Below are positions 1-16,447 of a DNA stretch of 64,000 nt, in pieces. The notes under the pieces are model-generated. The model was not told the DNA's origin and ran no database searches. It was given only the letters and a program-made list of their open reading frames with translations. How positions within the stretch are numbered: position 1 is the stretch's first letter; each line of letters starts with the position of its first letter. A program made the position numbers and the translations under genes. Source of the DNA: an uncultured Latescibacterota bacterium (lineage in GTDB: Bacteria; Latescibacterota; UBA2968); assembly GCA_951812755.1 (NCBI GenBank), contig OX638329.1, positions 6,003,107 to 6,067,106 on the forward strand. Direction: 5' to 3'.

Positions 1-1074
1 CATCATGGACTCTGGGACGGATGGATGGATCACTTGAAGGCCACGGGACCGTGGCCAGGAGAGAAACAGTGGAATAAACTGCGGTGTAAGAGCATGACAG
101 ATATAGGGGACCACTCGTCATGGCGCAACTACATTGGCGTAGTTTATGCCGATGGAAATGCCATGGGACAAATTGTCCAGGCACTCAATTATCCAGAGAC
201 ATTTCGACAATTTAGCGAAATTGTTGATAATAGCATCCGGCAAGCATGTTTCACCGCACTCAGTCAAATTTTCCAAGCTGAAATTGAAAAAATTCGGGAG
301 ACTTTTGAGCAAAACCGCCGCTTTGGACACCTTGCCGCCGACATTCTGCTATTGGGAGGAGATGATTTGCTGGTGGCCGTACCAGCTGACTCTGCACTCG
401 ATTTCGCCTTGAAGGTCACAGAAGAGTTCGAACGCTTGACACAAGAGAAAATAGCTGCCCTAAAAGATGCAGAATCTCGGCAATTCTTCCGCGACCATCT
501 TGGTGATCGGGGTTTCACAATTTCTTGCGGTGTTGCCATAGCAAAAAGTAACTATCCCTTTTACCTGTCATTGGACCTGGCCGAGCAATTGTTGAAAAAT
601 GCCAAACGGAAAGACAGCTATGGGGCACAGCTCGAAACACCTGGTGAAGCTCGCATTGACTTTCATGTTGTGACTGGTGCAAATAGCCATGCACTCAAAG
701 AGGTTCGTGAAGAAACCTATCAGATATCAAGCATTGCACGCCGCACGCTCAGACCCTTGTCTTGCTCCCAGTTGGAATTACTGCACAACAGTGTACAGAA
801 GCTACGCAACGTGAAATTTCCACATAGCAAATTACACGAACTTCGAGAAGCGGCACTGTCAAAAATGGTAAATCAAGCCGACTGGCGCGTTCGCGACATT
901 TTCGTCCGGTGTCGGCACGATCGAAATAGCTCTGAACGTCGTGCATTGTGGCAAGCGGTGCAAAACCTGTGTCCCCAGGGATATACGTTTGATTTCCCCT
1001 GGTTCATAAAAAATGACCAACGCCTTATGTGTGTAGCAGACATAGTGGATATTTACAACTTATTCCGAAAATAG
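1..1074 (+). CDS. cas10: Cas10 large subunit, C-terminal part (Palm2 cyclase plus C-terminal helical domain) of a type III-D-like module. The 5' end is cut by the window edge.
   Basis: Frame 1 is open from nt 1. VVYADGNAMGQ motif is followed about 65 aa later by LLLGGDDLLV (GGDD at 355-366). RAMP genes follow directly. Confidence 0.85.
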   Translation, partial: HHGLWDGWMDHLKATGPWPGEKQWNKLRCKSMTDIGDHSSWRNYIGVVYADGNAMGQIVQALNYPETFRQFSEIVDNSIRQACFTALSQIFQAEIEKIRETFEQNRRFGHLAADILLLGGDDLLVAVPADSALDFALKVTEEFERLTQEKIAALKDAESRQFFRDHLGDRGFTISCGVAIAKSNYPFYLSLDLAEQLLKNAKRKDSYGAQLETPGEARIDFHVVTGANSHALKEVREETYQISSIARRTLRPLSCSQLELLHNSVQKLRNVKFPHSKLHELREAALSKMVNQADWRVRDIFVRCRHDRNSSERRALWQAVQNLCPQGYTFDFPWFIKNDQRLMCVADIVDIYNLFRK

Positions 1075-1088
1075 AGAGGAGTTTATCT

Positions 1089-1829
1089 ATGAAACCCCAA
1101 CGCCTGGATTTGTGCTACCACATTATTTGGCAAGGACGTTGGCATGTTGGCAGCGGCTATCAGTCGGCAGTAGCGGACCGCTTGTTGCGACGACTACCCA
1201 ATAATGCACCATTTGTTCCTGGCTCTCAGATCAAAGGTGTTTTGCGCCATCAATGCGAGCGGTTGGCATTGGCCCTTGGGCTCGAAGTGATCAATCCTCA
1301 TGCTGGCATTGAAGAAGACGAAAAAAATCTGATCAAGCATTTTACGCCGTTAAAAAAATCGGACCTGATGGTCGATAGATTATTTGGCAGTCGCTACCAG
1401 GGAGAGTGCCTGTTTGTGACGAATGCAGTGCCGATGTCGTCTGAGGTGGAAAGAGCGACTTCCGTACAGGCACGCACAGCCATTGATCGCGTCACGGGGA
1501 CTGTGATGGAACAACATTTATTCACAACCGAATTGACAGAAGGTGATGTCAACTTGCAGGGAAAAATTCGTGCACGGCATCCTGCTGGTGTTCTGACGCA
1601 GGATGAAGATAGCTTTCCGTATGAGTATGACCTTCTGATAGCAGCCCTGCTGTCGCTGGACGCTCTCGGCGGTGACAAGAGTCTTGGCCTTGGGAGGTGT
1701 AAGGTCCAAATCGAACCAGAGTCGTTGTATTGGAACGACAAACGCAGATCGTTAGATGAAGTTCTTCAGAGTTTCCATAATGAACCTGAAGAATGGGGCG
1801 AGATGCTGAAAATACTGCGCGAGGAGTGA
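1089..1829 (+). CDS. Cas7-family RAMP (Csm3-like)
   Basis: GAGGAG RBS before ATG 1089. Motifs HVGSG, FVPGSQIKGVLRH, LFGS, AIDRVTG and G-rich loop GGDKSLGLGRCKV. Confidence 0.75.
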   Translation: MKPQRLDLCYHIIWQGRWHVGSGYQSAVADRLLRRLPNNAPFVPGSQIKGVLRHQCERLALALGLEVINPHAGIEEDEKNLIKHFTPLKKSDLMVDRLFGSRYQGECLFVTNAVPMSSEVERATSVQARTAIDRVTGTVMEQHLFTTELTEGDVNLQGKIRARHPAGVLTQDEDSFPYEYDLLIAALLSLDALGGDKSLGLGRCKVQIEPESLYWNDKRRSLDEVLQSFHNEPEEWGEMLKILREE

Positions 1830-1834
1830 ATATC

Positions 1835-3073
1835 ATGAAAAAATTGCCTGTAACAGCAAAATTGCTTGCACCAGTGGCTATCAAACGCGATCGGCAATCT
1901 GAACGCTCTGAAAGTGTGCATTCTATAGCTGGGACGATGGTTCGCGGTGCCATAGCGGCTATCTATTTACAGCAACACGGAGAAGTAGATGATACCTTCA
2001 ATCATTTGTTCCTGGATGAGAACTCATGTCGATTCGGGCCATTGGATCCCGGCCCAAATTGCTTCCCATTAACTGCCGCAACGTGCAAACGGGAAGGGAT
2101 AGAGCATACTCTGGTGGACCAACTATGGTTTCGTATCGCCCAGCACCACCGGGCTGGCAGTGTACCCAATAATGCCGAAACGCCATGGCGTCAATGTGAT
2201 ACATGTGAGGCCGATTTGCAGAGCCTTAACGGTTTTTGGCAAGCAGAAAACGGCCATCCGCGGGAAAAAAGTAATGACCGGCAGCAGGTCGCCGCCCATG
2301 TTGGCATTGACCGTCACACCACCACTGCGGCGGAATCAATATTGTACACTCTTGAAGCCTTACAGCCTTCCGGACAAGAGGAAGACCTGTATGGCTGGCT
2401 CTGGGCCGACGACGATGCGCTTACTGCCTTGAAACAACTCTTGCAGAATGAAGATTATCGCATCTCGGTGGGCCACCATCGCACGCGCGGTTACGGAGAT
2501 CTGCACTTACAGTTGGGCAATCCTGTGAAGAAGAATGATTCGCAGCCATGCACAGAAGATTGGGAGCAATGGAACCGCGACCTGATTGCGTTTCTGAGTT
2601 CACCGCCACTTTCCGTTCCCGATCTCGACCCAGATAATTTTTACTTTAGTTTGTCGTTTCCCACTGGCGCAGTATTTGTGGACCGCTTTCTGTGTTATAC
2701 TCTCGATCCAGCAGACCTGATTTCATGGTTGCCGCCTATGCCTTCTGCCGATGCCGCGTTTCCAATTCAGAATCGTCCGACCCGACAACTCGCATCAGGG
2801 GGCACAATGTGCTGGATCGCTGCCGTAACCCGACATGAGCGTTTGCGCGGCTGGAATGCGGCTCACGGCTTGCCGCGTCAGGATGAATGGGCCACAGCAC
2901 GAGGATCAGTCTATGTTTACCGCTTTACAGGCACGGCCACAGAACGCGAGGAACTCATTGAACAACTTGCAACCTTGTCCGAAGAAGGCGTCGGTCTGCG
3001 GCGCAATGAAGGCTTTGGCAGGGTGATCGTGTCCGATAATTTCCATCGCCAATTTTGCAAACAGGAGGTGTAA
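1835..3073 (+). CDS. Csx10-like Cas5-family RAMP
   Basis: RBS GAGGAG, ATG 1835. IAGTMVRGAIAA near the N-terminus, C-terminal G-rich loop NEGFGRV. Size and position after cas10/cas7 match type III-D csx10. Confidence 0.6.
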   Translation: MKKLPVTAKLLAPVAIKRDRQSERSESVHSIAGTMVRGAIAAIYLQQHGEVDDTFNHLFLDENSCRFGPLDPGPNCFPLTAATCKREGIEHTLVDQLWFRIAQHHRAGSVPNNAETPWRQCDTCEADLQSLNGFWQAENGHPREKSNDRQQVAAHVGIDRHTTTAAESILYTLEALQPSGQEEDLYGWLWADDDALTALKQLLQNEDYRISVGHHRTRGYGDLHLQLGNPVKKNDSQPCTEDWEQWNRDLIAFLSSPPLSVPDLDPDNFYFSLSFPTGAVFVDRFLCYTLDPADLISWLPPMPSADAAFPIQNRPTRQLASGGTMCWIAAVTRHERLRGWNAAHGLPRQDEWATARGSVYVYRFTGTATEREELIEQLATLSEEGVGLRRNEGFGRVIVSDNFHRQFCKQEV

Positions 3074-3078
3074 TCGTG

Positions 3079-3495
3079 ATGGTCTTGAACAGCGATTTGA
3101 TCCAGAAAGTTGATCGCTACATTGACGAAAACCATAAAACGTTTTCAGAATTAGGAGATAGTTTCTTTGATGTATTTAGCTATGACAAAGGGAATGACCG
3201 CATCAGTACGCAAATTCGGAATCTGCAACAAATTACCTGCTCCGCCACGCGCTTTGCGGATATTGAGGATTTCGTAAAGAATCAGATGGGTAAAGAAAAA
3301 GAAGTCAAATGGAAGAGAGTTGGAGACAGCACTTTAAAAAAATTAAAGGAGTTGCGCGACAAAAGCCAGGAATTTGATTCCGATCCCGCTAACCAGATGG
3401 CACTGCGTCTGCGTCTCGCTCGTGGTTGGGTGCGTGCCGTAGTCAGTCAGTATCTCTATCGCGTTGCATGCGATCAAATGGGAGAGAGGTCATGA
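3079..3495 (+). CDS. Cas11-like small subunit, paralog 1
   Basis: AGGAGG RBS. About 138 aa, helical. ISTQIRNLQQI resembles the Csm2/Cmr5 signature seen in csm2 of this window (TTSQIRNVFGEV). Confidence 0.55.
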   Translation: MVLNSDLIQKVDRYIDENHKTFSELGDSFFDVFSYDKGNDRISTQIRNLQQITCSATRFADIEDFVKNQMGKEKEVKWKRVGDSTLKKLKELRDKSQEFDSDPANQMALRLRLARGWVRAVVSQYLYRVACDQMGERS

Positions 3496-4013
3496 CAGGC
3501 GTTGATTTACTATCTGATACCACCTACTGTGAACAGGCTGTTCGACAACTGGATCAACTATTGGGCGACATGAATCAATTCCCCGTAAAGCGCACGCAGA
3601 TCTACGGCCTGCGACAAATCGCCCGTCAGGAACCCAGAGAAGTTCAAAGATTTGCCAATCATCAGCGCGAGCGTGCCCAGCGCAAGCAGAAAAACGCCTC
3701 CGAAAACACCAAACCGAGATACCAGCCAGAAATCGATTTCTGGGCTCTGGTGGCCGATTTGTGCAGCAATTCGAGTTCTAATTGGTCTGTGGAAGAGGAA
3801 GGACACACCCACCTTCCGGAAGAACTACAAAATATTCCGGCAAGGCGAAAAGGCATGTCGCATGAGGAACAACGGTATTTAAACGAACTCAAGAGACATA
3901 GAAGGGAATTACTCGAACAATGGACAAACGAGCATATTCCAGCGTTTTTTGAACGGTTTTGTACACACGCTTTGTACCGCCTGGGAAAGCAAAAAAACTC
4001 GGAAAAGGAGTAA
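3492..4013 (+). CDS. Second Cas11-like small helical protein, paralog 2
   Basis: ATGA start/stop overlap with the previous gene. KRTQIYGLRQIA motif. Charged helical protein of 173 aa. Confidence 0.45.
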   Translation: MTGVDLLSDTTYCEQAVRQLDQLLGDMNQFPVKRTQIYGLRQIARQEPREVQRFANHQRERAQRKQKNASENTKPRYQPEIDFWALVADLCSNSSSNWSVEEEGHTHLPEELQNIPARRKGMSHEEQRYLNELKRHRRELLEQWTNEHIPAFFERFCTHALYRLGKQKNSEKE

Positions 4014-4016
4014 AAC

Positions 4017-4874
4017 ATGACGAATGACAATGCATTGGCTGCCGGTTTTGGATTGCAGCAAAAGATCCGCCTTACCACATTTCTTGTGTTTGACACTGCC
4101 TGGCGCATTGGCTCTGGTAAAGAAGGCGAAACCATGAGCGATTTGGGTGTGGTACTTGATCCTATAAGCCAACCAGTGCTTCCCGGTTCCTCTCTCAAGG
4201 GAAAATTGCGAAGCACCTGTGAAACCCTGTCACATGCGCTTGGATTGAGAGCCTGCATGTTGAATTACGAAGCAAGCGGTGTCAAATGTACAAGTGATGT
4301 GAATTACTATCACAATGTTCGTGGAACATATCAGGAAGCATTTCAAAAGGGGTTACGGGATCGCCTGCAATGGATTGAGGAGAACACCTGCGATGTGTGC
4401 AAGCTGTTCGGATCCCCAATGCAGGCAAGCCGGCTGTGTATAAGTGACGGCATGCTTAAAGAATGGGCGTCCGTTGTGCAGGTACGCGATGGCGTAGTAA
4501 TTGACCGCGATAGCCAGACGGCTGTCAATGGTCTCAAATACGACTATGAAGTCATCCCGTCCGGTAGCCGATTTGAAATTTGTATCGATCTCGAAAACCC
4601 AACGGACCAGGATATGGCCTTACTCGGTGCTGCTCTGTTTGAATGGCACTCTGGCAGCAGCATTGGGGGCTTTACAAGCCGTGGCCTCGGGCGCTTTCGT
4701 CTGGAGAATATTCAGCTTGCCGGTGTTAATATGTCCGACAGTGAGCAACGGATGAAGTTCCTGACTGCCACAAAGACTGAAGATCGCCTCAGCGATTTGG
4801 GTGATTGGGAAACCTACTTTACCGGACATATCAAACGGCAACTCTCGCCTGCCACCGAAATTGAGGAGAATTAA
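4017..4874 (+). CDS. Cas7 RAMP (Csm3/Cmr4-like)
   Basis: WRIGSG, LPGSSLKGKLRS, CDVCKLFGS, VRDGVVIDRDS and G-rich loop GGFTSRGLGRFRL. Confidence 0.85.
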   Translation: MTNDNALAAGFGLQQKIRLTTFLVFDTAWRIGSGKEGETMSDLGVVLDPISQPVLPGSSLKGKLRSTCETLSHALGLRACMLNYEASGVKCTSDVNYYHNVRGTYQEAFQKGLRDRLQWIEENTCDVCKLFGSPMQASRLCISDGMLKEWASVVQVRDGVVIDRDSQTAVNGLKYDYEVIPSGSRFEICIDLENPTDQDMALLGAALFEWHSGSSIGGFTSRGLGRFRLENIQLAGVNMSDSEQRMKFLTATKTEDRLSDLGDWETYFTGHIKRQLSPATEIEEN

Positions 4875-4876
4875 CC

Positions 4877-5836
4877 ATGTTGCGGAAATGGCTTTGTCAA
4901 GCTGATGTAAAAATCGCCATCGAACCGGTTGATCCGGTATTGATTAAGAGCGGCTATGCTACCAGGGATGGGGCAGATATGGTGCCTGTATCAACGTTTA
5001 GAAACGGTGAGAGAGTCTATTACTTTCCGGGCACATCCCTCAAAGGCGTGTTGCGTAGCCATTTGGAACGGATAGCTCGTACCTTGCAGCAAGGTAGCGT
5101 GTGTATTCCCTACTATGATCCAAAGAAAGACATTTCTATACCTGTTGCAGCGGAACTGCACTCCCATGGCTGTGGGTTTCGTTCACGAGGGGGAAGGAAT
5201 GGAGAGGCTGCATCGGCCAAGTACGCGGATTCGTGCGCTACGTGTCGAATGTTTGGTTCACTGAAATTTGGCGGACGTTTTAGCATTGGCGATGCCTACC
5301 CCTTGCGGGATTATGAACCCACTTTAGAAGCGCGCAACGCGGTGGGTATTGACCGTTTTACAGGTGGATCGGTATCAGGTGCTTTATTCGATCTGCAAGT
5401 GCTGGTTGGCGGTAAATTTGAAGCAAATCTGCGGTTGACAAATTTTGAACTCTGGCAATTGGCCGCTCTCAATTTGTTGTTTGCCGATCTACAAGACGAG
5501 ATGATTACCATTGGTTCGGGACGAAGTAGAGGACTCGGGCGCGTGCGCGGCACTGTCACTTCGTATTTTCTAACATACGTGCGGGAGGGGAGTCATCTTG
5601 AAGGTTTATACCAACTCGCAACCCCGGAGGAACAGCAAGCCTACCGGCTGCACAACTGGAAGCCCGACAATCCGATTGAGCTATCAACGCCAGAGTCGCA
5701 TGGCTTGCGGCAGGAATACGATCTGAGCTCTGATTGGCTCCAACATTTGCAACCGCTCGTTCCAGCCTTTGAGGCATTTTTACGGTGTCACGGCGGACCT
5801 CAAGGACAGGCATCCGGACAGGGGGATAGGTTATGA
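4877..5836 (+). CDS. Cas7 RAMP (Csm3/Cmr4-like)
   Basis: FPGTSLKGVLRSH, CATCRMFGS, AVGIDRFTGG, IGSGRSRGLGRVRG. Confidence 0.85.
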   Translation: MLRKWLCQADVKIAIEPVDPVLIKSGYATRDGADMVPVSTFRNGERVYYFPGTSLKGVLRSHLERIARTLQQGSVCIPYYDPKKDISIPVAAELHSHGCGFRSRGGRNGEAASAKYADSCATCRMFGSLKFGGRFSIGDAYPLRDYEPTLEARNAVGIDRFTGGSVSGALFDLQVLVGGKFEANLRLTNFELWQLAALNLLFADLQDEMITIGSGRSRGLGRVRGTVTSYFLTYVREGSHLEGLYQLATPEEQQAYRLHNWKPDNPIELSTPESHGLRQEYDLSSDWLQHLQPLVPAFEAFLRCHGGPQGQASGQGDRL

Positions 5837-6426
5837 CTGCCTTCTTAAAAACGGCGGATTTGACACCAGATCAGTTTCTCGATCTGATTACCAATCTCAA
5901 CCAGGATGACACACCCCAGCAACGGATCTGGCTGGAAGCACCTGATGGTTGGGCCTTCAATTGGTGGTGCGGCCTGGCTGGGGACCTCTGCTGGTGTGGT
6001 GCAGGCCGAGAGCCGGTTGAAAAATCTGCCCGTGATTGTCTGCCCCAGTCCACCTCCGGGCGATTGTTTGCGCCTGACGGTGAACTGCGCTGGCGCGTTA
6101 TTCCCTCTCTGGGGGAATCGTGCTGGCGTACCGTTTTCCTCGGTAACGCCGATTGGGTGGGTACTGCATTGGACGACTACTCAGATAGACTACATGATCT
6201 GCATCCACATCAGGACAGCTTTTTTTTGTGGGGCCAACAAACCGATGAGACGCCGGATGAGTGGATTGAATTACGCATCCCGCATCGCTTTCGCTATCCG
6301 ATTAGTGATAATCCTCGCAGTGTAAGCGTTGTGGTTGAGCAGTGGAACGACGATGCCAGCGAGCCTCACTTTGTCCGCTTGTGCGATCTCAAACCCTATC
6401 AGGAGAACAGTGATGCCGCAAGGTGA
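5833..6426 (+). CDS. Type III-associated protein of unknown function, in the position Csx19 occupies in III-D loci
   Basis: ATGA overlap with the upstream cas7. 197-aa Trp/Cys-rich protein with no motif I can name. The Csx19 assignment rests on position only. Confidence 0.45.
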   Translation: MTAFLKTADLTPDQFLDLITNLNQDDTPQQRIWLEAPDGWAFNWWCGLAGDLCWCGAGREPVEKSARDCLPQSTSGRLFAPDGELRWRVIPSLGESCWRTVFLGNADWVGTALDDYSDRLHDLHPHQDSFFLWGQQTDETPDEWIELRIPHRFRYPISDNPRSVSVVVEQWNDDASEPHFVRLCDLKPYQENSDAAR

Positions 6427-7501
6427 AAATTTCTGGAATCCTTATCGCTGGGTTCCCATCAGCGATCAGCCTGTAGAATACGGCGATCTACCTTATCAAC
6501 ATGTAGTGAGCGATCTTTCCGGCCGTTTCTGGTGCGAACTCGAAGCTCTGACGCCATTTATCGTCGGTGACGGACATGGGGTGTTTGTCGAGCATTCCCA
6601 TAATTTTCGTCCTTACATTCCGGCCACTTCGCTTAAGGGTGCAATACGTTCTCTCGCAGAAGTCATCGGCAATGCAGCCGTGCCGTTTTCAAATGTTTCG
6701 GTAGATAGCCAGCATGCACTGACGCGGGCACGCAACAACTCAAAACTTGACACAGTAGCCAGAACATTTGGCTATTTGGATCGTGGCAATGTCTTCGCTG
6801 GCTTGATACGCTTTAGTGACGCGGAAATCACCGAAGAACCGCTACCGCCAAACCGATGGCCAAAGTACGATGTCGCTGTCGGTCAGCCCAGACCGAGCCA
6901 TACCGCGTTTTATCCGGGGAAGAATCAACGCAAGTTCTATCACCATCGTCCCGGTGCCACACAGCTTATTGCACCACACGCTGGGATTAAGACGACTAAC
7001 GTACAACCTGCACCTCCCGGCACGCGCTTTAGCTTTACGGTGAATTTTGCGAATCTACGCAATCCTGAACTCAATTTGCTGCTCTACTGTCTGATGCTCG
7101 AAGAACAGGTCGCTGTCACGCTAAGCCCTGCGGCACTGGGTCGTGACGAGGCTGAAGGATCAGTCACATTAGATGGACCGTTGCGCCACAAAATGGGAGG
7201 TGCCAAACCTCACGGTGCTGGTTCTGTGCGTATTCGTATTATCAAGATGGAGTTGTGTGCAGATGCGATGGCACGTTATCGGGGTAGTGATACTGTCGAA
7301 ACATGGGAAGCAGAAGACCTTACGAATGAACTCGAAAGTCGTACCGCATCATTTCGGGGACGTACCGATCAAACCATGCAAGAATTACGCGCCATGTTGA
7401 TCTACTCTCTCAATGATCCCAGAAAGCCGATTCAGTATCCGACCTATGGATGGTTTCGGAATGGAAACAATTCAGGCAGGCAGTTAAAACCTACAATATA
7501 G
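6413..7501 (+). CDS. Large RAMP protein (Cas7-like, possibly the III-D TIGR03986-type or Csm5-like subunit)
   Basis: AGGAGA RBS, ATG 6413. IPATSLKGAIRS, TFGYL, G-rich loop MGGAKPHGAGSVRIRI. Confidence 0.7.
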   Translation: MPQGENFWNPYRWVPISDQPVEYGDLPYQHVVSDLSGRFWCELEALTPFIVGDGHGVFVEHSHNFRPYIPATSLKGAIRSLAEVIGNAAVPFSNVSVDSQHALTRARNNSKLDTVARTFGYLDRGNVFAGLIRFSDAEITEEPLPPNRWPKYDVAVGQPRPSHTAFYPGKNQRKFYHHRPGATQLIAPHAGIKTTNVQPAPPGTRFSFTVNFANLRNPELNLLLYCLMLEEQVAVTLSPAALGRDEAEGSVTLDGPLRHKMGGAKPHGAGSVRIRIIKMELCADAMARYRGSDTVETWEAEDLTNELESRTASFRGRTDQTMQELRAMLIYSLNDPRKPIQYPTYGWFRNGNNSGRQLKPTI

Positions 7502-7516
7502 TGGAAGGAATTACTC

Positions 7517-9352
7517 ATGAAAACAGAGCCAGACCAGGCGTCGGGTGTGCCGCATATTTTATTGACCAGCCTGGGGACCAGAGCTATTGCAACGAAATAC
7601 CAGTTGGATGACCGAACAGTTACCGCTTCGCTTACCCCGCTGGCGTTGGTGCAACTTCTTGACCCGTCGGAGCGGCCCAATCGCGTTGTCGCGATGGTCA
7701 CGGAAGGAGCCAGGGGTGAAACATGGGAACCCTTCAAAAATGGAATCTGTAAGACCCTCGATTTTGAACCCCAACTCATTTCGATACCCGATGGTAGTAG
7801 CAGCGAGGAAGTTCGTCAGATTCTCGAAAAGGTGGCTCAGGAAATTCCAGAAGGTGCAGAACTCACGCTTGATGTCACGCAGGGGATGAGACACTTCCCA
7901 TTCATCTTCTACGCACTGGTGCTCTACCTCACATCGCTTCGGAATGTAAAGGTTCGCGGTGCGTACTATGGGATGATCGAAGGAACTTCACAAGACTCGC
8001 CCAGACCCATCATTGATTTGCAGCCATTACTCGCATTGCCAGAGTGGTTCCATGCCGTGCGGGTGTTCCGTGATCAGGGGACGACCTCGGCAATGGCGCA
8101 ACTCCTTGAGCCGTTGGCAGAAAAATTGAAGCAGGAAACCGGGACACTGTTTAAGGCCGGGGATAAGAGTGCTGGTCAAAAATGTAGCGCGCAACTCAAG
8201 CAAGTTAAAGATGCTGTTGAGTTGCTGGAAAAGCATGCGTTTGCTTATGAGTCTGCCTTGCCACTGGAATTGGGAAAGGCCAGTTTGCGTCTCATTGATC
8301 CGATTAGGAAAATCGCTGGCATGGATACCGCCAATCTTCCACCGCTTTTTGCCGAGCTAACGGATACCATCGTTGACGTGGCAAAAAAAGCGACTTTTAC
8401 AAACCCGATACCCAACAAGGGGGTATGGAAACAAAACATCGGTTTGGATGAGAACGAGTTGAAGCGTCAAGCTCGTATGATTGATTTGTATCTGGACCGC
8501 GATCAACTCCCGCTGGCGGCTGGTCTGATGCGCGAGTGGGTAGTCTCCTGGCTCATCATGCAGCACTCAGACCAGCCCCAGGACTGGTTGAAGCATCCTG
8601 TACGCCAGAAATATGAGCGAAGGCTGGGTGCGCTTGGAGCATTAGAGAAAGATCCGTTCGTTACGCCAGAAGGTTCTGACGACATCTATCTCGAAGAAAA
8701 CGATTTTGGAGCATTAGAGAGAGATCCGTTCGTTACGCCGGAGCAGCGAGATTTCGGGAATTTCTGGAATCAACTGACACAACAGTTGCGAAATGCTCTG
8801 CACCACCATGCCATGCGCGAAGAGGCCCTCGAAGAGCCACCCAAACCCCTTGAAACGGTTCGGCATTTTTGGAATAAACTAAAAGCTGGAAAAATAGACC
8901 TGCCACAATTGGGCGGTGGTGGTGGCCGGCTGTTGCTTTCACCGCAGGGAACGCGACCGGGCGTATTGTTCTCAGCATTAAAGGTCGCCGAACCCGATAC
9001 CTGTCTGGTGATTTGTTCAGATGCGTCGGCGGATAGTATTCCCAATGCTGCCAGCCGTGCTGAATTTGAAGGTGACATTAGGCGGATCGAATTGGCAGAT
9101 CCACACGGCGGTTTTGCTGAAATTGATGCAGCAGCAGAACGTGTCCGTCGCGATCTGTTGAATGCCGATGAAGTCCTGGCCAATATGACCGGTGGTACCA
9201 CACTGATGGGCCTCGTTATCCAACGTCTGGTCGAAGAGGCACAAAAGCTGGACCGCACGGTGCAACGCTTTGCCCTCATTGATCGCCGTCCGCCCACCGA
9301 GCAAGACGGCGATCCGTTTGTGCAAAGCGACTGTCACTGGCTTGACGGCTGA
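7517..9352 (+). CDS. csx1: Csx1-like CARF-HEPN effector with an extra C-terminal CARF-like domain
   Basis: N-terminal ILLTSLGT and a DxTHG-type motif DVTQGMRHFP. HEPN-like RNALHH (R425). C-terminal LLLSPQGTRPG ... NMTGGTTLMG second CARF-like unit from about aa 470. Confidence 0.7.
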   Translation: MKTEPDQASGVPHILLTSLGTRAIATKYQLDDRTVTASLTPLALVQLLDPSERPNRVVAMVTEGARGETWEPFKNGICKTLDFEPQLISIPDGSSSEEVRQILEKVAQEIPEGAELTLDVTQGMRHFPFIFYALVLYLTSLRNVKVRGAYYGMIEGTSQDSPRPIIDLQPLLALPEWFHAVRVFRDQGTTSAMAQLLEPLAEKLKQETGTLFKAGDKSAGQKCSAQLKQVKDAVELLEKHAFAYESALPLELGKASLRLIDPIRKIAGMDTANLPPLFAELTDTIVDVAKKATFTNPIPNKGVWKQNIGLDENELKRQARMIDLYLDRDQLPLAAGLMREWVVSWLIMQHSDQPQDWLKHPVRQKYERRLGALGALEKDPFVTPEGSDDIYLEENDFGALERDPFVTPEQRDFGNFWNQLTQQLRNALHHHAMREEALEEPPKPLETVRHFWNKLKAGKIDLPQLGGGGGRLLLSPQGTRPGVLFSALKVAEPDTCLVICSDASADSIPNAASRAEFEGDIRRIELADPHGGFAEIDAAAERVRRDLLNADEVLANMTGGTTLMGLVIQRLVEEAQKLDRTVQRFALIDRRPPTEQDGDPFVQSDCHWLDG

Positions 9353-9482: not shown

Positions 9483-10115
9483 ATGAGCCAAGAATTGACA
9501 GAAAGCAAAATTAGACAGACCCTGGACTGGGCTTATGATAAAGCCGTAAATGGGATAGCAGGTTCTAAGACAGCACAACAATTTGCAGAAGATTATCTTT
9601 CCAAGAATGGTTCTCTGCATGATCAGGCAAACTCTCTTATTAGATGGCAGACCACAAAAGCAGGAACGTCAGGATTTTTGACAGGTCTTGGTGGCCTTCT
9701 TCTGATGCCAGTAACTATTCCTGCTGATCTTGCAAGCGTATTATATATCCAAATCAGAATGATTGCCGCGATTGCATATATGGGCGGGCATGACTTAAAA
9801 AATGATAAGGTGCGATCATTAGTCTATGTCTGTCTTGTAGGAAATTCTGCAAGAGAGATAATCAAAGACCTGGGAATCGTGCTTGGAACCAAACTGACAA
9901 CGCAAGCAATCAGAAAAATCTCAGGAAAAACCATTATTGCAATCAACCAGAGAGTTGGATTTCGGCTACTGACAAAGTTTGGAGAGAAAGGTGTGGTTAA
10001 TTTGGGAAAAACTGTTCCACTTGCCGGTGGTGTTGTGGGAGCTATTGCTGATTCAGTGCCTACCAAAATAATTGGCAACGTAGCGAGAGACACCTTTATT
10101 GGATCGAAAGCATAG
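9483..10115 (+). CDS. EcsC-family protein
   Basis: AAGGAG RBS. TKAGTSGFLTGLGGLLLMPVTIPADL, IQIRMIAAIAYMGGHDL and GFRLLTKFGEKGVVNLGKTVPLAGGVVG match my recollection of the EcsC family pattern. Confidence 0.65.
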   Translation: MSQELTESKIRQTLDWAYDKAVNGIAGSKTAQQFAEDYLSKNGSLHDQANSLIRWQTTKAGTSGFLTGLGGLLLMPVTIPADLASVLYIQIRMIAAIAYMGGHDLKNDKVRSLVYVCLVGNSAREIIKDLGIVLGTKLTTQAIRKISGKTIIAINQRVGFRLLTKFGEKGVVNLGKTVPLAGGVVGAIADSVPTKIIGNVARDTFIGSKA

Positions 10116-10242
10116 CAGTCTATTTCAATAATTATGCGGGATTGTATCTACATTTACCTGTCATTATTTATTTGTCATTCCAATTCAGTTCCTAACCATT
10201 CCTAACTACTGACCTCTCGCCCTTATAGGTAGTATGCATGGG

Positions 10243-10272
10243 AATGATTTGCAAAGTAATGATTTGCAAAGT
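10243..10272 (+). promoter_or_regulatory. Perfect 15-bp tandem direct repeat (AATGATTTGCAAAGT x2), each with a TTTGCAAA palindrome. Candidate operator in front of csm1.
   Basis: Read directly from the sequence. It ends 22 nt before the csm1 ATG. Confidence 0.35.
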
Positions 10273-10293
10273 GTTGAAAGGAGAGCCAGCAAG

Positions 10294-12675
10294 ATGGCTG
10301 AACGAGATGCTTTAATTTTGGGTGCTCTGTTGCACGATATAGGGAAGTTTTGGCAGCGGTCAGGTATCCGCAGAAAGCATGAACACCTGGGAGCAGAATT
10401 TTTGGATTTGCCAGTGATTCGAAACAAGATCGAAACACTGGTTGACCTTCGAGATGTTCAAAACATCATTTCTGAACACCATGAATCGGGTGTATATGAT
10501 GTGCTGGTTCGCATAGCTCAGGTTGCTGACCGTCTTGCTTCTGGCGAACGCCGTGCCCTGGGAGAGGGCCAAACGCAGACGCCGTGGGAGGAGCCGTTGA
10601 AATCCGTTTTCGCACAGATTTACGACCAGGAAAAGGGACTTTCAAAAGCATCTTATCCCACGCAAAAGCTATCGCTAAATAGGGAAACCATCTTTCCACG
10701 CGAAAATGTGCGCCCGGATTACGACAGCCTTTGGCAAGAATTTTTGGATGAAGCAGAGCAACTGCCGAGTGGAGATTTTGAGATATTTTTTGAATCCCTT
10801 TTTTACCTCCTAAAAAAATATACATGGTGTGTACCCAGTGCAGCATACAGGGACCACGCGGATATTTCGCTGTTTGATCACAGCAAGGTGACAGCAGCCA
10901 TTGCGTGGTGTCTCTATGAGTTGCGCGATCGGTTAGAACCTGTGGAACAGTTTGTATCGAACCGCGGAGGAAACGGAACAGCACCAGTCGCACTTCTCGT
11001 TGGTGGCGATATTTCAGGCATTCAATCATTCATCTATTCGATTTCTTCAGATGGTGCCGCAAAGAGCCTGCGCGGACGCTCTGTCTTTCTCAATCTGCTG
11101 AGTGATGCAGTTATGGAATACGCAATACAACAGTTGGGAAATCCACCCATCTGCAACTTGCTCTACAGTAGTGGGGGCCATTTCTATTTTTTAACTTCTG
11201 TTGACCAGTTGGAAAACGTAAAGCGCGTTAAAAAAGAAATTTCAGAGTGCCTTTTTGACGCTTTTGGAACTGAAATTTATTGTGGACTTGAAGCCGTGAG
11301 CCTTGCAGCTATAGATTTCCAGCGCGAAGCGGGCAATCGGGAAGGCAAGCTCAATATTGGAGACCGATGGAAAGAATTGATGGAAAAACTCGGGATGTGT
11401 AAACGACAAAAATTTGGCGATCTGATGCCTGAGCGATTTGATGATTTCTTTGAGCCTGTGGGTAGCGGTAAGGTGGATGATGTTTGCACGGTTTGCCATG
11501 TTGAAATATCGCAAGCAACTCGACGCACAATAGCAGAACGTACAGAGGACGATTCAGTTGTATGTTCGCTTTGCCACAGTTTTGAGCGACTGGGAGATGA
11601 TGTAAGGAAAGCAAAGTATCTGATGACCCGTGATGTTTCGCCCCAGAAATTTCGGGTGATAACGTGGGGGCGTGCCCTTGAAGGATTAGGACGCCGTTAT
11701 CAGTTTTCGCCTGATTTGGAGTCGAATTGGGATCGTGCCTATACGCTGGACAATACGGAGTTTTTGTCGGTTGGCGCACAGGGATTTCGTTTTGTAGGCA
11801 ACGCCGCCCCTATTGACAAAAAAACCAGCCATGTACGGGACTTCAGCGACCTCGCTGACGCCTCAAAAGGGATTCCCCGCTGGGGTTTGTTGAGGATGGA
11901 TATTGATAACCTGGGCAAAATATTCAGTGAGGGACTGGGCAAGGATTTGTCTCTCTCACGTATCACAACCTTGAGTTCAATGGTCTCGTTGTTCTTTGAA
12001 GGGTATGTGAATACGCTCTGTAAAGATACCGACCCAGACCGATTGTATGTGATCTATACAGGAGGCGATGATTCATTCATCGTTGGATCGTGGGATGCCG
12101 CGCTTGATTTCGTACAGAAATTGCAAATGGATTTTCAAAATTACACCTGTGACAATCCAAAAGTAACGCTCTCGGCTGCTCTGACGCTTGAAGCCCGGAA
12201 ATATCCGCTCTATAAAGCCGCAGACCGTTGCGGTGAGTGGCTGGACCTGGCAAAAGATCAAAAAGATGATGTCCGAGGTCTTGAGAAATCCAGCTTTACA
12301 TTTCTCGGACAACCGATATTCTGGCATGATTTTGAGCCTATTGAACAGATGAAACATGTGATCGTCAATCTGGTGAGCGATGGCGGACGTAGCTTGCTTC
12401 AGCGACTCATGTCAGCCTACAAACTGTATGAAGAAAACAAGCAACACTTGTCATCCCAATCATTGAGCCGAGATAAGTTGAACCGGCTGGTTCAAAATGA
12501 TCGGTGGCGGTGGCAACTGGCTTACAGTCTGGCCAGAGAAGCAGAGAGGTCAAAGTCACAGCGAAAGGAGGGTTTAAAGCACCTCCAAACCATGATTTTT
12601 AATCAAAATTTCATCGAATTTCTACACATTGCGACCCGATGGTCCGAACTGGCAACACGAAAACAAGGAGAGTGA
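10294..12675 (+). CDS. csm1: Cas10/Csm1 with N-terminal HD domain (type III-A)
   Basis: RBS AAAGGAGAG. HD motifs LHDIGKF and SEHHE. LLVGGDISGIQSFIY, SSGGHFYFL, LLRMDIDNLGKIF, IYTGGDDSFIVGSWD. Confidence 0.92.
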   Translation: MAERDALILGALLHDIGKFWQRSGIRRKHEHLGAEFLDLPVIRNKIETLVDLRDVQNIISEHHESGVYDVLVRIAQVADRLASGERRALGEGQTQTPWEEPLKSVFAQIYDQEKGLSKASYPTQKLSLNRETIFPRENVRPDYDSLWQEFLDEAEQLPSGDFEIFFESLFYLLKKYTWCVPSAAYRDHADISLFDHSKVTAAIAWCLYELRDRLEPVEQFVSNRGGNGTAPVALLVGGDISGIQSFIYSISSDGAAKSLRGRSVFLNLLSDAVMEYAIQQLGNPPICNLLYSSGGHFYFLTSVDQLENVKRVKKEISECLFDAFGTEIYCGLEAVSLAAIDFQREAGNREGKLNIGDRWKELMEKLGMCKRQKFGDLMPERFDDFFEPVGSGKVDDVCTVCHVEISQATRRTIAERTEDDSVVCSLCHSFERLGDDVRKAKYLMTRDVSPQKFRVITWGRALEGLGRRYQFSPDLESNWDRAYTLDNTEFLSVGAQGFRFVGNAAPIDKKTSHVRDFSDLADASKGIPRWGLLRMDIDNLGKIFSEGLGKDLSLSRITTLSSMVSLFFEGYVNTLCKDTDPDRLYVIYTGGDDSFIVGSWDAALDFVQKLQMDFQNYTCDNPKVTLSAALTLEARKYPLYKAADRCGEWLDLAKDQKDDVRGLEKSSFTFLGQPIFWHDFEPIEQMKHVIVNLVSDGGRSLLQRLMSAYKLYEENKQHLSSQSLSRDKLNRLVQNDRWRWQLAYSLAREAERSKSQRKEGLKHLQTMIFNQNFIEFLHIATRWSELATRKQGE

Positions 12676-12678
12676 GAT

Positions 12679-13137
12679 ATGGCAATGCACTGGAGGGATA
12701 TTGTGTCTGAGGATAGACAAAGAGGAAGAAAGAATTATTCACTAAACAAAAAAGGTGCGGAGCTGATTTCAAGCGTTATCAAACAAAAAGACCAGACAGA
12801 TAAACTGGTAGATATTGCAGAAACACTAGGCCGGTTTTTAGCGGAAGGTTATAACGAGGCAATTACAACATCCCAAATCCGAAATGTTTTTGGCGAAGTT
12901 CGAAAGACCGAGATGGAATGGAAACGGGACTCTGAAGCAAGTTGGGTACGCTTACAACTTCTGCGTCCTAAACTGGCATATACAGCAAAAAAAGATAATA
13001 AAGCTCGAGCGATTATTTTTCGAGACGTGCTTTCTACTGCTATACTCAATGTTGAGGGCAACTCCGAAAATTTTCAACGATTTGTCAATCTTTTTGAAGC
13101 AATTCTCGCTTACCATCGCGCATCCGGTGGAAGATAA
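12679..13137 (+). CDS. csm2: Csm2 (Cas11 small subunit)
   Basis: 152-aa helical protein with TTSQIRNVFGEV, positioned between csm1 and csm3. Confidence 0.8.
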   Translation: MAMHWRDIVSEDRQRGRKNYSLNKKGAELISSVIKQKDQTDKLVDIAETLGRFLAEGYNEAITTSQIRNVFGEVRKTEMEWKRDSEASWVRLQLLRPKLAYTAKKDNKARAIIFRDVLSTAILNVEGNSENFQRFVNLFEAILAYHRASGGR

Positions 13138-13158
13138 AAAACGAATAGGAGCAATACT

Positions 13159-13992
13159 ATGAACACATTGGATTTTTTTCAGAATTGGCAAGGCAAAGTG
13201 ATGATTTCAGGTTGTTTGGAAGCAGTCACGGGCCTCCACATTGGAGGATCGGAGACGGGTATCGAAATCGGTGGTGTGGATAATATCATTATTCGACAAC
13301 AGTCAGATGGTCGCCCCTATATTCCGGGCAGTTCGCTCAAGGGAAAGATGAGAAGCCTGACTGAACGGGCGCACAATAAGAGGCTTATTGAAGTAGTGCG
13401 TGGACGCAACCCTATTCGGCAGCATCAATGCGATGATAACGAACCTGAAGTCTGCGAGGTCTGCAAAGTATTTGGCTTGCCGGGACAACGGAGGAACAGC
13501 CAGCCCACTCGATTAATCGTGCGAGATGGCAAGCTACTGGACGAGTTATATGTTACAGAGCCAAACGGTAAACGAAATCTTCGAAACTGGGATGATTCCA
13601 ATGTGGATACAGACATGCCGTTCTCCGAGGTAAAAAACGAGGTTGCCATTGATCGGATTACGTCAGCCGCAATGCCGCGTCCGGTTGAGCGCGTGCCCGC
13701 AGGTGCTCGGTTCAGTTATGACATGGTATTCGATATTTTTGAAGATGCGGACAAAGATCATTTGGGCCTTGTCTTTGAAAGTATGCGCCTACTGGAAAAC
13801 GACTACCTCGGTGGATATGGTTCGCGCGGTTCGGGACAAATTCGTTTTGAGTCCGTCAAAATCACCTGGCGATCTAAAACCGATTATCGGTCAGGTGGTA
13901 GTGGCACAGTGGTTGGCGATAATCTGGATTTGAGTGAAATAGCAGAAAAATTTGAAACAGAGATCAAGACCAAACTGAACGGAGTGGCGTGA
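13159..13992 (+). CDS. csm3: Csm3 (Cas7)
   Basis: LHIGGS, YIPGSSLKGKMRS, CEVCKVFG, AIDRITSAA, GGYGSRGSGQIRF. Confidence 0.9.
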   Translation: MNTLDFFQNWQGKVMISGCLEAVTGLHIGGSETGIEIGGVDNIIIRQQSDGRPYIPGSSLKGKMRSLTERAHNKRLIEVVRGRNPIRQHQCDDNEPEVCEVCKVFGLPGQRRNSQPTRLIVRDGKLLDELYVTEPNGKRNLRNWDDSNVDTDMPFSEVKNEVAIDRITSAAMPRPVERVPAGARFSYDMVFDIFEDADKDHLGLVFESMRLLENDYLGGYGSRGSGQIRFESVKITWRSKTDYRSGGSGTVVGDNLDLSEIAEKFETEIKTKLNGVA

Positions 13993-15014
13993 TGGATGTA
14001 TCTTATCTGCTGGTACGCCTTCAACCGCTCGCGCCGTTTCATCTTGGGAAACGGGGCATCGGTTTGGAGGAGACAGAGACATTTGTGCATGCAGATACCC
14101 TGTTTAGCGCGCTGTGCAATGTCTGGGTGCGCTGTTTTGGTCGAGACGATCTTGAGAATCGGTTCTTGCCATCGGTAGAAACCAGTGAAAATGGCTCACT
14201 TTTCCAAATTTCATCAGCGTACCCCTATGCCAATGATGTGCTATTTTTTCCCAAACCGCTTTCGCCTTTGCCTGTGCAAAATGTCGATTCCAAAAAACTC
14301 AAGCACTGCCGGTTTATTTCAGAACAGATTTTCAGGGATCTAATTCATGGACGCGAAATTGTCCCGGCTTCGCAGGATAGGATATTCTGGTTATCGCAAG
14401 CAGAGCAAGATACGCACGCACAATTTGACGATCAGTTTCATATCTGGCAGGAAACAGAAGTCCCTCGTGTATCACTGGATCGCGTAACGCAGGCGTCTAA
14501 CATCTTTTATTTTAGCCAAGTGACATTCGCAGAGGGATGTGGTCTATTTTTTTTGGTGAATCTGGATGCATCTTTGAGACCCGATTTTGAGATGGCTATT
14601 CGCGTCCTTGGTGATACAGGCATTGGTGGAGACCGCACGGCAGGATACGGTCAATTTGAACCCCAATTCTCGAAATTCACGCTGAATATCCCTGATAACG
14701 CTTCTCAAGCCGTAACCTTATCGCTTTTGTCTCCTCGAAACCGGGCGGAACTCTCAAATTATCTCGGAGAACAGAGTGCGTACGAACTGATTCGGCGCGA
14801 TGGATGGATTGATTCTCCAGATGGGCGGAACTACAGGCGGCGTGCCTGCCTGATGTTTGCGGAAGGTAGTGTGATAAACCGATCTGAAAATGGCATGATG
14901 GGACGGCTTGTGGATGTGACGCCAACGGCTCCTGAAGTACAGTTGACACACTCGGTTTATAGATACGGCATTGGATTCCCCGTACCGATTTGCCTGCGAG
15001 AGGAAGGTGTTTGA
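13992..15014 (+). CDS. csm4: Csm4 (Cas5-family RAMP)
   Basis: TGATG overlap with csm3. LAPFHLGKRG ... HADTLFSALCNVW N-terminus. GIGGDRTAGYGQF G-rich loop. Confidence 0.85.
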   Translation: MDVSYLLVRLQPLAPFHLGKRGIGLEETETFVHADTLFSALCNVWVRCFGRDDLENRFLPSVETSENGSLFQISSAYPYANDVLFFPKPLSPLPVQNVDSKKLKHCRFISEQIFRDLIHGREIVPASQDRIFWLSQAEQDTHAQFDDQFHIWQETEVPRVSLDRVTQASNIFYFSQVTFAEGCGLFFLVNLDASLRPDFEMAIRVLGDTGIGGDRTAGYGQFEPQFSKFTLNIPDNASQAVTLSLLSPRNRAELSNYLGEQSAYELIRRDGWIDSPDGRNYRRRACLMFAEGSVINRSENGMMGRLVDVTPTAPEVQLTHSVYRYGIGFPVPICLREEGV

Positions 15015-15015
15015 T

Positions 15016-16305
15016 ATGGCTAATGCAGTAAAAAAATACCGCGTAAAAGTTCTGACACCTGTTCATATCGGCACTGGAGAAGAACTACAAGAAAACCTGG
15101 ATTTTTACGTCAAGAATAATCGAGTTCGCGTACTGGATTTTGACCGTTTGATAGTGGCGTGTGAACAGGCTGGTATTGATCCAATGCCTTATGTTGAAGA
15201 AGGTCGTCTGGATAATTTGTTCAATTCCAGCGCAGTGTCGCAACCCAAACCAGATATTGATCCTCGCTGGGCCAAGCTGGCTGCTTTGCAAACCGGGAAT
15301 CAAGCCCAGGCGCAATTAGAGATAGATGACGGACTTGCTTATCAAGCACAGATTCAGGCCGTAAATAGACCGCAGACTATTTTGTCTCAGATCAAAACGG
15401 CCTCATCGCTGGGGTATATCCCGGGAAGTTCGGTTAAAGGAGCAATACGAACTATTTTGGCACGCCATTTGATGAACGACGACGCTGTGCGGTCTCAAGT
15501 GGCAAGGCAACTCCGTGACCAGGGTCCCAGAGCATGGCAGCGACGAGCAGGGCAAGATATGGAAAAGAAATTATTTGGTCGCAATCCCAATTATGATCTC
15601 GGTCGAGTAATTCAGGTGACAGATGTGGGTCCCGGTGCGCGTGTTCAGGTGACAGAAGTACTGATCGCTGACATGGATCGAAACGAACGACTTCGCTGGA
15701 AAAACCTGAGCAATCATCGCATTGTGAGCGACCCGAGACAAGGTACTTCAATTTTTTGCGAATGCCTGCCTGTGGGCATGGAACTTCTTACAGAGATTCG
15801 GATTGATCAGTGGTTGCTGGAACATCGAGCACTTGGATTTAATACCCATCGCGACCTGATATTGCAGTTCGAATCCCTATGCCGCGCCCAGGCCAAATCA
15901 CATCTGGAAAGAGAAACTATGTTTTTCCGAAAAGGGGGCATGAATGACCTGTCTTCTTTCTGCGAAAAGCAATTGCTGCCTCTAACAGAAACAGATTCAG
16001 GGTTCATACTTCGCGTGGGATGGGGCACAGGATGGGAAGACAAAACAGCCGGGGATAATCTGGATACTTCTCTAAAAGAAAATTTGCGACGCTGGTATGA
16101 GTTGGGTAAAATGGTGCATAAGGGATGTAATGGAGATGTAAACAGGTGGAGGGGCAGTTATTCATGCAGGCGATGTCGAAAAAACAAACTTACAGTATCT
16201 CAAATTGACCTGATCTCTCCATTTCCAAAAACGCGGAAAATTGCATTTGCAAACCAAAAGCCAGCCTACCCAATGGGATGGTTGGCTTTTGAAGCCATTT
16301 CTTAG
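15016..16305 (+). CDS. csm5: Csm5 (Cas7-like RAMP)
   Basis: LTPVHIGTGEEL, YIPGSSVKGAIRT, VGWGTGWEDKT. Position after csm4. Confidence 0.8.
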   Translation: MANAVKKYRVKVLTPVHIGTGEELQENLDFYVKNNRVRVLDFDRLIVACEQAGIDPMPYVEEGRLDNLFNSSAVSQPKPDIDPRWAKLAALQTGNQAQAQLEIDDGLAYQAQIQAVNRPQTILSQIKTASSLGYIPGSSVKGAIRTILARHLMNDDAVRSQVARQLRDQGPRAWQRRAGQDMEKKLFGRNPNYDLGRVIQVTDVGPGARVQVTEVLIADMDRNERLRWKNLSNHRIVSDPRQGTSIFCECLPVGMELLTEIRIDQWLLEHRALGFNTHRDLILQFESLCRAQAKSHLERETMFFRKGGMNDLSSFCEKQLLPLTETDSGFILRVGWGTGWEDKTAGDNLDTSLKENLRRWYELGKMVHKGCNGDVNRWRGSYSCRRCRKNKLTVSQIDLISPFPKTRKIAFANQKPAYPMGWLAFEAIS

Positions 16306-16406: not shown

Positions 16407-16447
16407 AATTTTCTATCCCAGTATTTTCAAGTGAAAGAGATTATCTT

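Follow-up and report, generated by a model that had tools for sequence, protein, structure and literature searches.

The window analyzed here, a stretch of 64,000 nucleotides from an uncultured Latescibacterota bacterium (assembly GCA_951812755.1, contig OX638329.1), carries two type III CRISPR operons, of subtypes III-D and III-A, and, flanked by them on either side, a gene for a protein of 611 amino acids (aa) in which a Csx1-type CARF-HEPN unit is followed by a second, C-terminal CARF domain. The gene opens with an ATG 15 bp past the last RAMP gene of the III-D operon; its domains and neighbors are listed in the table. A word-indexed search recovers 382 homologs of the 611-aa protein and, among the best 120 of these, 119 align over 96% or more of the query, are 570-630 aa long and share 57-86% identity with it. 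Because of this number of homologs, their nearly full coverage, and the invariant motifs described below, a chance open reading frame (ORF) can be dismissed. The motifs quoted in the initial annotation, which was made from the letters alone, lie at the residues it named, namely, ILLTSLGT at 14-21, DVTQGMRHFP at 119-128, RNALHH at 425-430, and GGGGG at 466-470, as do the two C-terminal strings, LLLSPQGTRPGVLF (aa 472-485) and NMTGGTTLMGLV (aa 556-567).

Table. Features of the target gene and its surroundings (positions in the window)
Feature	Position	Strand	Basis
Whole gene, 611-aa CARF-HEPN-CARF protein (CARF2-family Csx1 with C-terminal CARF)	7517..9352	+	ORF; PADLOC PDLC01840
N-terminal CARF, aa ~12-200	7550..8116	+	TIGR02221; phmmer to the Csx1-Crn2 CARF
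Helical connector, aa ~201-330	8117..8506	+	all-helical AlphaFold2 (AF2) secondary structure; matches the helix-turn-helix (HTH)/helical region of Csx1 between CARF and HEPN
HEPN domain, aa ~331-462 (boundaries approximate)	8507..8902	+	PADLOC CARF+HEPN; AF2 helices
24-aa tandem duplication in a HEPN loop, aa ~373-409	8633..8743	+	alignment; predicted local distance difference test (pLDDT)
HEPN catalytic motif R-x4-H, RNALHH, R425...H430	8789..8806	+	alignment
Gly-rich tether P-x-L-G-G-G-x-G, aa 463-471, from HEPN to second CARF	8903..8929	+	alignment
C-terminal CARF, aa 472-610	8930..9346	+	AF2, Foldseek, profile matches
Motif II of second CARF, N-M-T-G-G-T-T, aa 556-562, predicted ligand-pocket loop past beta4	9182..9202	+	conservation, HMMER, hhalign
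D-R-R motif, aa 589-591, past the last core strand	9281..9289	+	conservation
Type III-D effector operon: 3' part of cas10 (GGDD), csx10, two csx7, csx19, TIGR03986 RAMP	1..7501	+	directly upstream
210-aa EcsC-family protein	9483..10115	+	PF12787, E 2.2e-12; between target and csm1
Complete type III-A operon, csm1-csm5	10234..16305	+	Csm1 with HD domain, GGDD at aa 610
390-aa CARF7/APE2256-type protein past csm5	16403..17575	+	PF09651, E 7.3e-34; PADLOC PDLC01930 'CARF7--CARF_DUF2103', E 1.6e-124
CRISPR array, >40 units, 37-nt repeat ATCAGGAAGGATTACCCGACTACTGGGGTATTGAAAC	18215..22000	.	Tandem Repeats Finder (TRF); ORF translations of repeat copies

The N-terminal two thirds of the protein (aa 1-460) had been assigned to the DxTHG/Csx1 family, and NCBIfam, PADLOC, and Foldseek agree on a Csx1 of the DxTHG/TM1812 type. 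TIGR02221, the model of the TM1812 family, matches with 84.6 bits against a cut-off of 76.25 (E 9.3e-24), the PADLOC Csx1 and Csx1/Csm6 models match with E-values of 1e-48 to 1e-60, the Csx1/Csm6 'CARF+HEPN' model spanning aa 13-454 (E 2.8e-60), and the best Foldseek matches of the whole AF2 model are Marinitoga Csx1-Crn2 (E 1.6e-13), Sulfolobus islandicus Csx1 (SisCsx1; 1e-8), and Thermus TtCsm6, with about 500 columns of the model aligned to Csx1-Crn2 and SisCsx1; phmmer, in addition, pairs aa 87-200 with the CARF domain of Csx1-Crn2 (8y75, 8y7g). The beta1 loop of the first CARF reads HILLTSLGT, and the DxTHG-type motif is DVTQGMRH (aa 119-126), with a Gln instead of the His of DxTHG (D119-V-T-Q-G). 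In an alignment of 31 sequences of the close family, this Gln is nearly invariant in the clade; relatives that encode the second CARF as a separate gene, described below, hold the canonical DVTHG or DITHG, and the TIGR02549 motif model matches the target weakly (E 0.28). The HEPN motif RNALHH, which the initial annotation had placed at R425, holds up, with R425, N426, H430, and H431 invariant across the 31 sequences and RNGTHHH, RNAWHHH, or RNPLLH in the split and unfused relatives; the HEPN helices are modeled at 331-350, 360-376, 408-430, and 444-456. By every computational criterion, then, aa 1-460 are a Csx1-type CARF-HEPN ribonuclease, with RNase activity predicted.

One peculiarity of the HEPN domain, which had been overlooked before, is a 24-aa tandem duplication, GALEKDPFVTPE / GALERDPFVTPE (aa ~373-409), that is private to the protein from the window: none of the 30 aligned homologs has it, and AF2 models it as disordered (pLDDT <50 over aa 381-403). 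The whole-protein model has a pLDDT of 79 and a predicted template-modeling score (pTM) of 0.60. Mean pairwise identity in the close family is 0.72 for the N-terminal CARF, 0.70 for the C-terminal CARF, 0.61 for HEPN, and 0.55 for the helical connector, the least conserved region.

The CARF-HEPN-CARF architecture as such is already cataloged and is not new. PADLOC-DB holds three 'CARF2--CARF_HEPN_CARF' models (PDLC01838-01840), and aa 13-610 of the target align with positions 5-544 of the 547 of PDLC01840 (E 1.6e-137). Sibling models match the same Csx1 part: aa 14-440 also hit CARF2--CARF_HEPN_CSX3 (E 4e-31), _CSX20 (E 1e-30), and _CSX16 (E 4e-13), and the first 440 residues match CARF2--CARF_HEPN_Unk_f1 as well. 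The review PMC8284326, relaying Makarova et al. 2020, likewise names Csx16, Csx20, Unk_01, and also Crn3 as fused to Csx1. The C-terminal CARF of the target thus sits in the slot that, in sister fusions on CARF2 Csx1, is occupied by Crn2, Csx3/Crn3, Csx16, and Csx20.

The C-terminal CARF domain

The view that the last 140 residues or so restart a CARF-like unit is borne out by a confident AF2 model together with Foldseek and profile matches that are all to CARF domains. Modeled alone, aa 463-611 form alternating strands and helices with a pLDDT of 88.5 and a pTM of 0.86, and this isolated part retrieves, at ranks 1-25 of the Foldseek search against the PDB, CARFs exclusively (TtCsm6, Can2, Cam1, Cad1, Csm6'), with query-normalized TM-scores of 0.5-0.69. 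The CARFs of Can2, Card1, and Can1 superpose with a root mean square deviation (rmsd) of 2.5-2.7 A over about 118 residues (Can2, 2.5 A). A profile built from 34 diverse members of the domain family finds the Can2 CARF 8BAO (E 4.4e-6) and the second CARF of Can1, 6SCE (E 2.5e-5); Pfam CARF_Card1 is weakly matched by 26 of the 34 members, and PDLC01840 recognizes the C-terminal domain alone through its profile positions 406-544 (E 6.4e-39). The protein terminates 20 aa past the CARF core.

Conservation is concentrated in two loops, SPxGxxPG after beta1 and NxTGGTT after beta4, which we take to be the canonical ligand-pocket loops of CARF domains; SPxGxxPG and NMTGGTTLMG are invariant in the 31-sequence alignment. 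Across the 34 members, G478 and G482 of the beta1 loop, G559 and G560 of the beta4 loop, D589, and R591 are invariant. N556, T558, T561, and T562 reach 90% conservation or more, and there is no conserved His or Lys. Q596 and P600 stand at 97%; these two positions, like D589 and R591, are kept in fused and free-standing members equally. The second-CARF motif II pairs with NISGGTK of Can2 in the HMMER alignment and with DVTQG of the N-terminal CARF in the hhalign comparison. D-R-R with Q596 and P600 makes up a C-terminal signature specific to this family. The tether that connects the domain to HEPN is conserved too, with P463, L465, G466, and G470 invariant in the close family; it is missing from the stand-alone relatives, the sequences of which open directly at beta1.

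The two CARFs of the protein are not copies of each other. A recent internal duplication is ruled out by an hhalign probability of 34% and by the different PADLOC clades of the two domains: the N-terminal one belongs to CARF2, and the secondary matches of the tail domain are to CARF1 and CARF4 models. Because the profile similarity is marginal and the clades differ, we conclude that the second CARF was acquired from another clade, of the sensor type. The initial annotation had compared the tail with ring nucleases of the Crn1 type, and this part of its reading does not survive, the nearest relatives being instead the sensor-type CARFs of Can1/Can2/Card1, TtCsm6, and Cam1. Identity with Crn1 (CARF7/Cas_APE2256) was rejected on two counts: PF09651 matches one of the 34 members, with E 0.084, and the top Foldseek matches of the isolated domain include neither Sso2081 nor Sso1393. 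Csx14, Csx15, Csx16, Csx20, and Crn4 were discarded as well, with no NCBIfam or PADLOC match for the tail domain, and the fold of Crn4 is unrelated (PMC12830947). Neither Pfam nor PADLOC yields a DUF1874 match to the C-terminal domain.

Fused, unfused, split, and stand-alone forms

An exhaustive HMMER search places the C-terminal CARF in 450 clusters at 50% identity (E <= 0.001) and, in most of the best 150 of these 450, the domain forms the C-terminal end of a protein of 550-620 aa. Full-length homologs number in the hundreds in Poribacteria, Latescibacterota, and Planctomycetota, and among contigs taken from one genome per species the family is also hosted by a Caldilineaceae and by a Myxococcales metagenome-assembled genome (MAG); the target protein itself has no entry in the contig index. 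Flanking sequence is available for 39 related loci (L001-L040 without L006). In 15 of these 39, III-D genes of the type seen in the window, at least cas10, directly follow the gene, and the set is complete in 9. Three loci (L021, L024, and L025; 53-57% identity) encode an unfused relative: the match is restricted to target residues 1-455 to 1-462, the ORFs in L021 and L025 (447 and 443 aa) end right past HEPN with no tail CARF, and in all three, the short csx1 is directly followed by a CARF7/APE2256 gene, a homolog of the 390-aa one in the window; ring-nuclease activity is documented for this family (SyCsm6, PMC9676260). A clean complementarity between the fused domain and CARF7 was considered and found no more than suggestive: all 3 unfused loci have CARF7, as do 4 of some 10 fused loci with a visible III-D operon.

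The analysis adds a new point to the cataloged architecture, namely, that the small CARF is a module with stand-alone and split forms. Homologs of the C-terminal CARF occur as complete proteins of 140-165 aa that open at beta1; a profile made from six of these recovers many more on long contigs, and every context examined for a stand-alone small CARF is a type III locus. Four loci represent a split form of the fusion, with the gene order Csx1 (469-475 aa), small CARF (158-163 aa), and cmr1-6. The upstream Csx1 proteins in these loci share 31-35% identity with target aa 3-454 (E 1e-56 to 1e-73), and the HEPN motif is RNGTHHH in three of them (L045, L046, and L049); in the fourth, L048, the upstream protein is without a HEPN motif, and its match stops at target residue 379. 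In L047, a small CARF is followed by a RAMP gene, and throughout L045-L049, cmr1 adjoins the small CARF gene or overlaps with it. The module is found with other effectors as well: in Carboxydothermus ferrireducens, its III-A locus also encodes WYL regulators, a CARF7 protein, and a Csx1 that belongs to a different (Pfam) family and has no similarity to the target, and in a Eubacteriales MAG, its neighbors are a Can2-like protein and a Csx1 of the DxTHG type. The small-CARF module hence occurs tethered, adjacent, or unlinked, with different effectors.

Two further observations concern the stand-alone genes. In both C. ferrireducens and the Eubacteriales MAG, the type III loci of which are unrelated Firmicutes loci, the small CARF adjoins a gene for a DUF1848 protein of 309-316 aa (L043 7014-7943 and L050 6341-7291), and the two may form a conserved gene pair. 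On a metagenome contig of 94.9 kb, the 261-aa protein P0136 combines a small CARF (aa 23-171) with a C-terminal RAMP match (PF03787) and could be either a small-CARF-Cmr1 fusion or an artifact of gene calling.

The surrounding genes

The GGDD cyclase motif is kept in both Cas10 proteins adjacent to the target gene, so that signaling by cyclic oligoadenylate (cOA) is expected at this locus. The EcsC-family gene between the target and csm1 has no homolog beside the gene in any of 42 related loci. The 390-aa CARF7 protein past csm5, which also matches the PADLOC CARF_RelE models, is possibly a separate ring nuclease or effector. The CRISPR array that follows is split by TRF into many rows, with the repeat translations QYPSSRVILPD running past 21527 to about 22000, and a lone copy of the repeat lies near 25750.

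Beyond the array, two short ORFs that overlap each other (89 and 104 aa; 22187-22761, + strand) resemble, on reading their sequences, an antitoxin/PIN-toxin pair of the VapBC kind. Just downstream of the lone repeat, at 26022-27584 (+ strand), a 520-aa ORF combines TPR repeats and an archaeo-eukaryotic primase (AEP; PF22548 AEP-TOTE, E 3.5e-43) with only the last ~50 residues of Cas1 (PF01867 positions 234-282 of 283, E 2.6e-12); no intact cas1 or cas2 was seen nearby, and the ORF is possibly a fusion of AEP with Cas1, or what is left of such a fusion. Farther on, two tandem pairs of ~108-nt repeats (27681-27893 and 39631-39847), with a shared core, TGGATTGCGGCT-AAAA-CATGCCGCAATGAC, in which there is an inverted repeat, may represent a dispersed intergenic repeat element.

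Function of the second CARF and comparison with known systems

Type III CRISPR immunity is a balance between a toxic, signal-activated RNase and removal of the signal, and to our knowledge, Csx1-Crn2 is the only fusion of an effector with its brake that has been studied in depth. The reading we favor, with a probability of roughly 0.55, is that the target is a self-limiting, cOA-activated RNase, the tail CARF of which removes the activator, with a ring nuclease preferred over sequestration. The gene product would be a HEPN ribonuclease of the CARF2 (DxTHG/TM1812) Csx1 family, activated most likely by cyclic tetra-adenylate (cA4). A homodimer would bind the cOA made by Cas10 in the pair of N-terminal CARFs, as in other Csx1, and binding would unite two R-x4-H motifs into an active composite HEPN RNase. 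The dimer of tail CARFs on their Gly-rich tethers would then offer a second cOA site that competes for the activator and removes it by ring-nuclease cleavage or by sequestration. The outcome would be a higher activation threshold, and an RNase that is turned off once Cas10 stops, comparable to the effect of Crn2 in Marinitoga Csx1-Crn2, a demonstrated self-limiting RNase (PMC7293037, PMC11317161). We infer the dimer arrangement, the ligand, and the cleavage or sequestration by the second CARF; for cA4, the reason is that every characterized structural neighbor of both CARFs binds this molecule.

This reading of a self-limiting RNase builds on the Csx1 identity of the N-terminal part, on the preserved pocket of the second CARF, on the GGDD motif of both adjacent Cas10 proteins, and on two observations of context: the module exists in separate forms, and it shares its slot on CARF2 Csx1 with ring nucleases, of which Csx16 and Csx20 degrade cA4 (PMC12409355). 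With no effector domain, a CARF has only two options, to bind the signal or to destroy it. Of the two functions that the initial annotation had offered, a built-in off-switch and a second ligand sensor, context favors the former while proving neither.

The sensor would be a second allosteric site, at which the C-terminal CARF binds the same or another cOA, for instance cyclic hexa-adenylate (cA6) from III-A as against cA4 from III-D, and co-activates or gates HEPN, so that two signals are integrated. The window itself would suit such an arrangement, with the gene lying between a III-D and a III-A system that both have an intact GGDD; the closest relatives of the domain are sensor CARFs (Can2, Can1, Card1, Cam1, and Cad1), and two CARFs from different clades could well differ in specificity. 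However, in most fused loci, L007, L008, L012, and L020 among them, just one type III system is seen within 10 kb, the split forms lie in plain III-B loci, and the free-standing domain, effector-less, is encoded beside unrelated Csx1 and Can2-type effectors, where a sensor with no output would make little sense. These three observations weaken the two-signal model, and there are, moreover, close relatives of 443-447 aa that are wholly without the tail domain. We consider a second sensor unlikely, and less likely than a brake that removes the activator.

Less probable again is a non-catalytic module that would bind cA4 tightly without cleaving it and would serve as a cOA sink, buffering the signal, or else mediate cA4-dependent higher-order assembly, as has been reported for Csx15 and for Csx1 hexamers. 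The clade of Can1, Can2, and Card1, to which the domain is closest, is reported not to cleave cA4 (PMC12409355), the lack of a conserved His or Lys in the C-terminal CARF fits such a role, and a passage of PMC13148439 provides a precedent in Csx15, a small CARF-like protein that oligomerizes on its ligand. A single tethered site per effector would, however, be a weak stoichiometric brake, the other four domain families found in the slot on CARF2 Csx1 are enzymes, and the invariant Thr-rich loop, D589, R591, and Q596 could support metal-independent phosphodiester cleavage. An intramolecular pairing, in which the first and second CARF of the same chain would make up a single asymmetric cOA site, is improbable, even though Can1 and Csm6-2 do form their ligand site from two CARFs of one polypeptide (PMC11229360; 6SCE is among the matches): with one HEPN per chain, a homodimer would still be required, unfused relatives of 443-447 aa and split forms exist, unrelated Csx1 families are found in the company of the stand-alone small CARF, and the two CARFs are similar only remotely, as the hhalign probability indicates. 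The default null, a degenerate remnant of a fusion with no ligand function, has nothing specific in its favor and is the least credible of all, given a domain that is conserved as much as the sensor CARF, has pocket motifs that do not vary across hundreds of clusters at 50% identity, and also survives as a gene of its own.

Several points weigh against the self-limiting RNase, and in particular against its ring-nuclease form. The nearest sequence relatives of the tail, Can1, Can2, and Card1, are reported to bind cA4 and leave it uncleaved (PMC12409355); the top fold matches of the domain include no Crn1 structure, and the Ser/Lys pair of Crn1 is not reproduced, with Ser/Thr and the invariant Arg591 found instead. 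A built-in ring nuclease is, furthermore, not strictly needed because many fused loci, the window included, also encode a CARF7/APE2256 protein. The geometry between the domains is uncertain at the pTM of the whole-protein model. Full-text searches found no paper that characterizes a Csx1 with a C-terminal CARF; the sole match to 'CARF-HEPN-CARF' was Csm6-2, which is actually CARF-HEPN-CARF-HEPN. Searches of IMG/VR by pattern and by tblastn found no phage-encoded relatives, BFVD gave only weak, generic Rossmann matches, and an anti-CRISPR role for such relatives was dropped.

More tentatively, and with somewhat less than even confidence, we propose that the C-terminal CARF and its free relatives of 140-165 aa constitute a distinct, unnamed family of type III ring nucleases (or cOA sinks) that would derive from the sensor-type CARF1/CARF4 branch, independently of Crn1, and would work either tethered to a CARF2 Csx1 or in trans; surveys of ring nucleases that combine Crn1-3 and Csx15/16/20 profiles with a length cut-off would have missed it. 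If the tail CARF is a ring nuclease, it would represent a second solution to joining an effector with its brake, this time from a CARF of the sensor type. In that case, its free-standing relatives would be a further family of ring nucleases, uncounted so far in surveys of loci, and this would help to explain the many Csx1 loci that seem to have no off-switch. Such an outcome would not overturn current models. The fused family is widespread, with hundreds of clusters at 50% identity, and is prominent in Planctomycetota and in sponge-associated Poribacteria and Latescibacterota.

Among known systems, Csm6-2 (CARF-HEPN-CARF-HEPN; PMC11229360) resembles the target in having two CARFs per polypeptide and in its association with III-D. 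It is, however, a duplicated, monomeric pseudo-dimer with two HEPNs, whereas the target has one HEPN and a second CARF from another clade; an architecture like that of Csm6-2 is ruled out by the single HEPN, the single R-x4-H, and the end of the protein past the second CARF. Crn1/Sso2081, Csx14, Csx16, Csx20, and Csx15 are comparable to the free relatives in size, in their location in type III loci, often beside Csx1, and in lacking an effector, but none of their NCBIfam, Pfam, or PADLOC models matches. The CARFs of Can2/Card1 and Can1 (CARF4/Crf4; 8BAO, 7BDV, 6WXW, 6SCE), with which N-x-[ST]-G-G-T is held in common, are the closest sequence relatives of the C-terminal CARF; in those proteins, the CARF serves as a sensor and is joined to a PD-(D/E)xK nuclease, whereas the domain of the target has no PD-(D/E)xK partner, follows HEPN, and ends in the unique DRR...Q...P tail.

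The closest counterpart of the whole protein is the CARF2--CARF_HEPN_CARF group of PADLOC-DB, which matches end to end in the same domain order without structural difference, apart from the private HEPN-loop duplication of the target. To this cataloged group, the present analysis adds the autonomy of the tail-CARF module, its origin from a sensor-type CARF clade, and the slot that it has in common with Crn2, Csx3, Csx16, and Csx20. Marinitoga Csx1-Crn2 (PDB 8Y6Z, 8Y7G), finally, is the best structural match of the whole model and the best PDB sequence match of the N-terminal CARF, and is likewise a CARF-HTH-HEPN Csx1 with a cOA-handling domain fused past HEPN. Its fused domain is, however, Crn2/DUF1874, with the AcrIII-1 fold and of viral origin, whereas that of the target is a Rossmann-like CARF, and sequence identity is only about 15%; the target is analogous in logic to the Csx1-Crn2 fusions and not a member of them.

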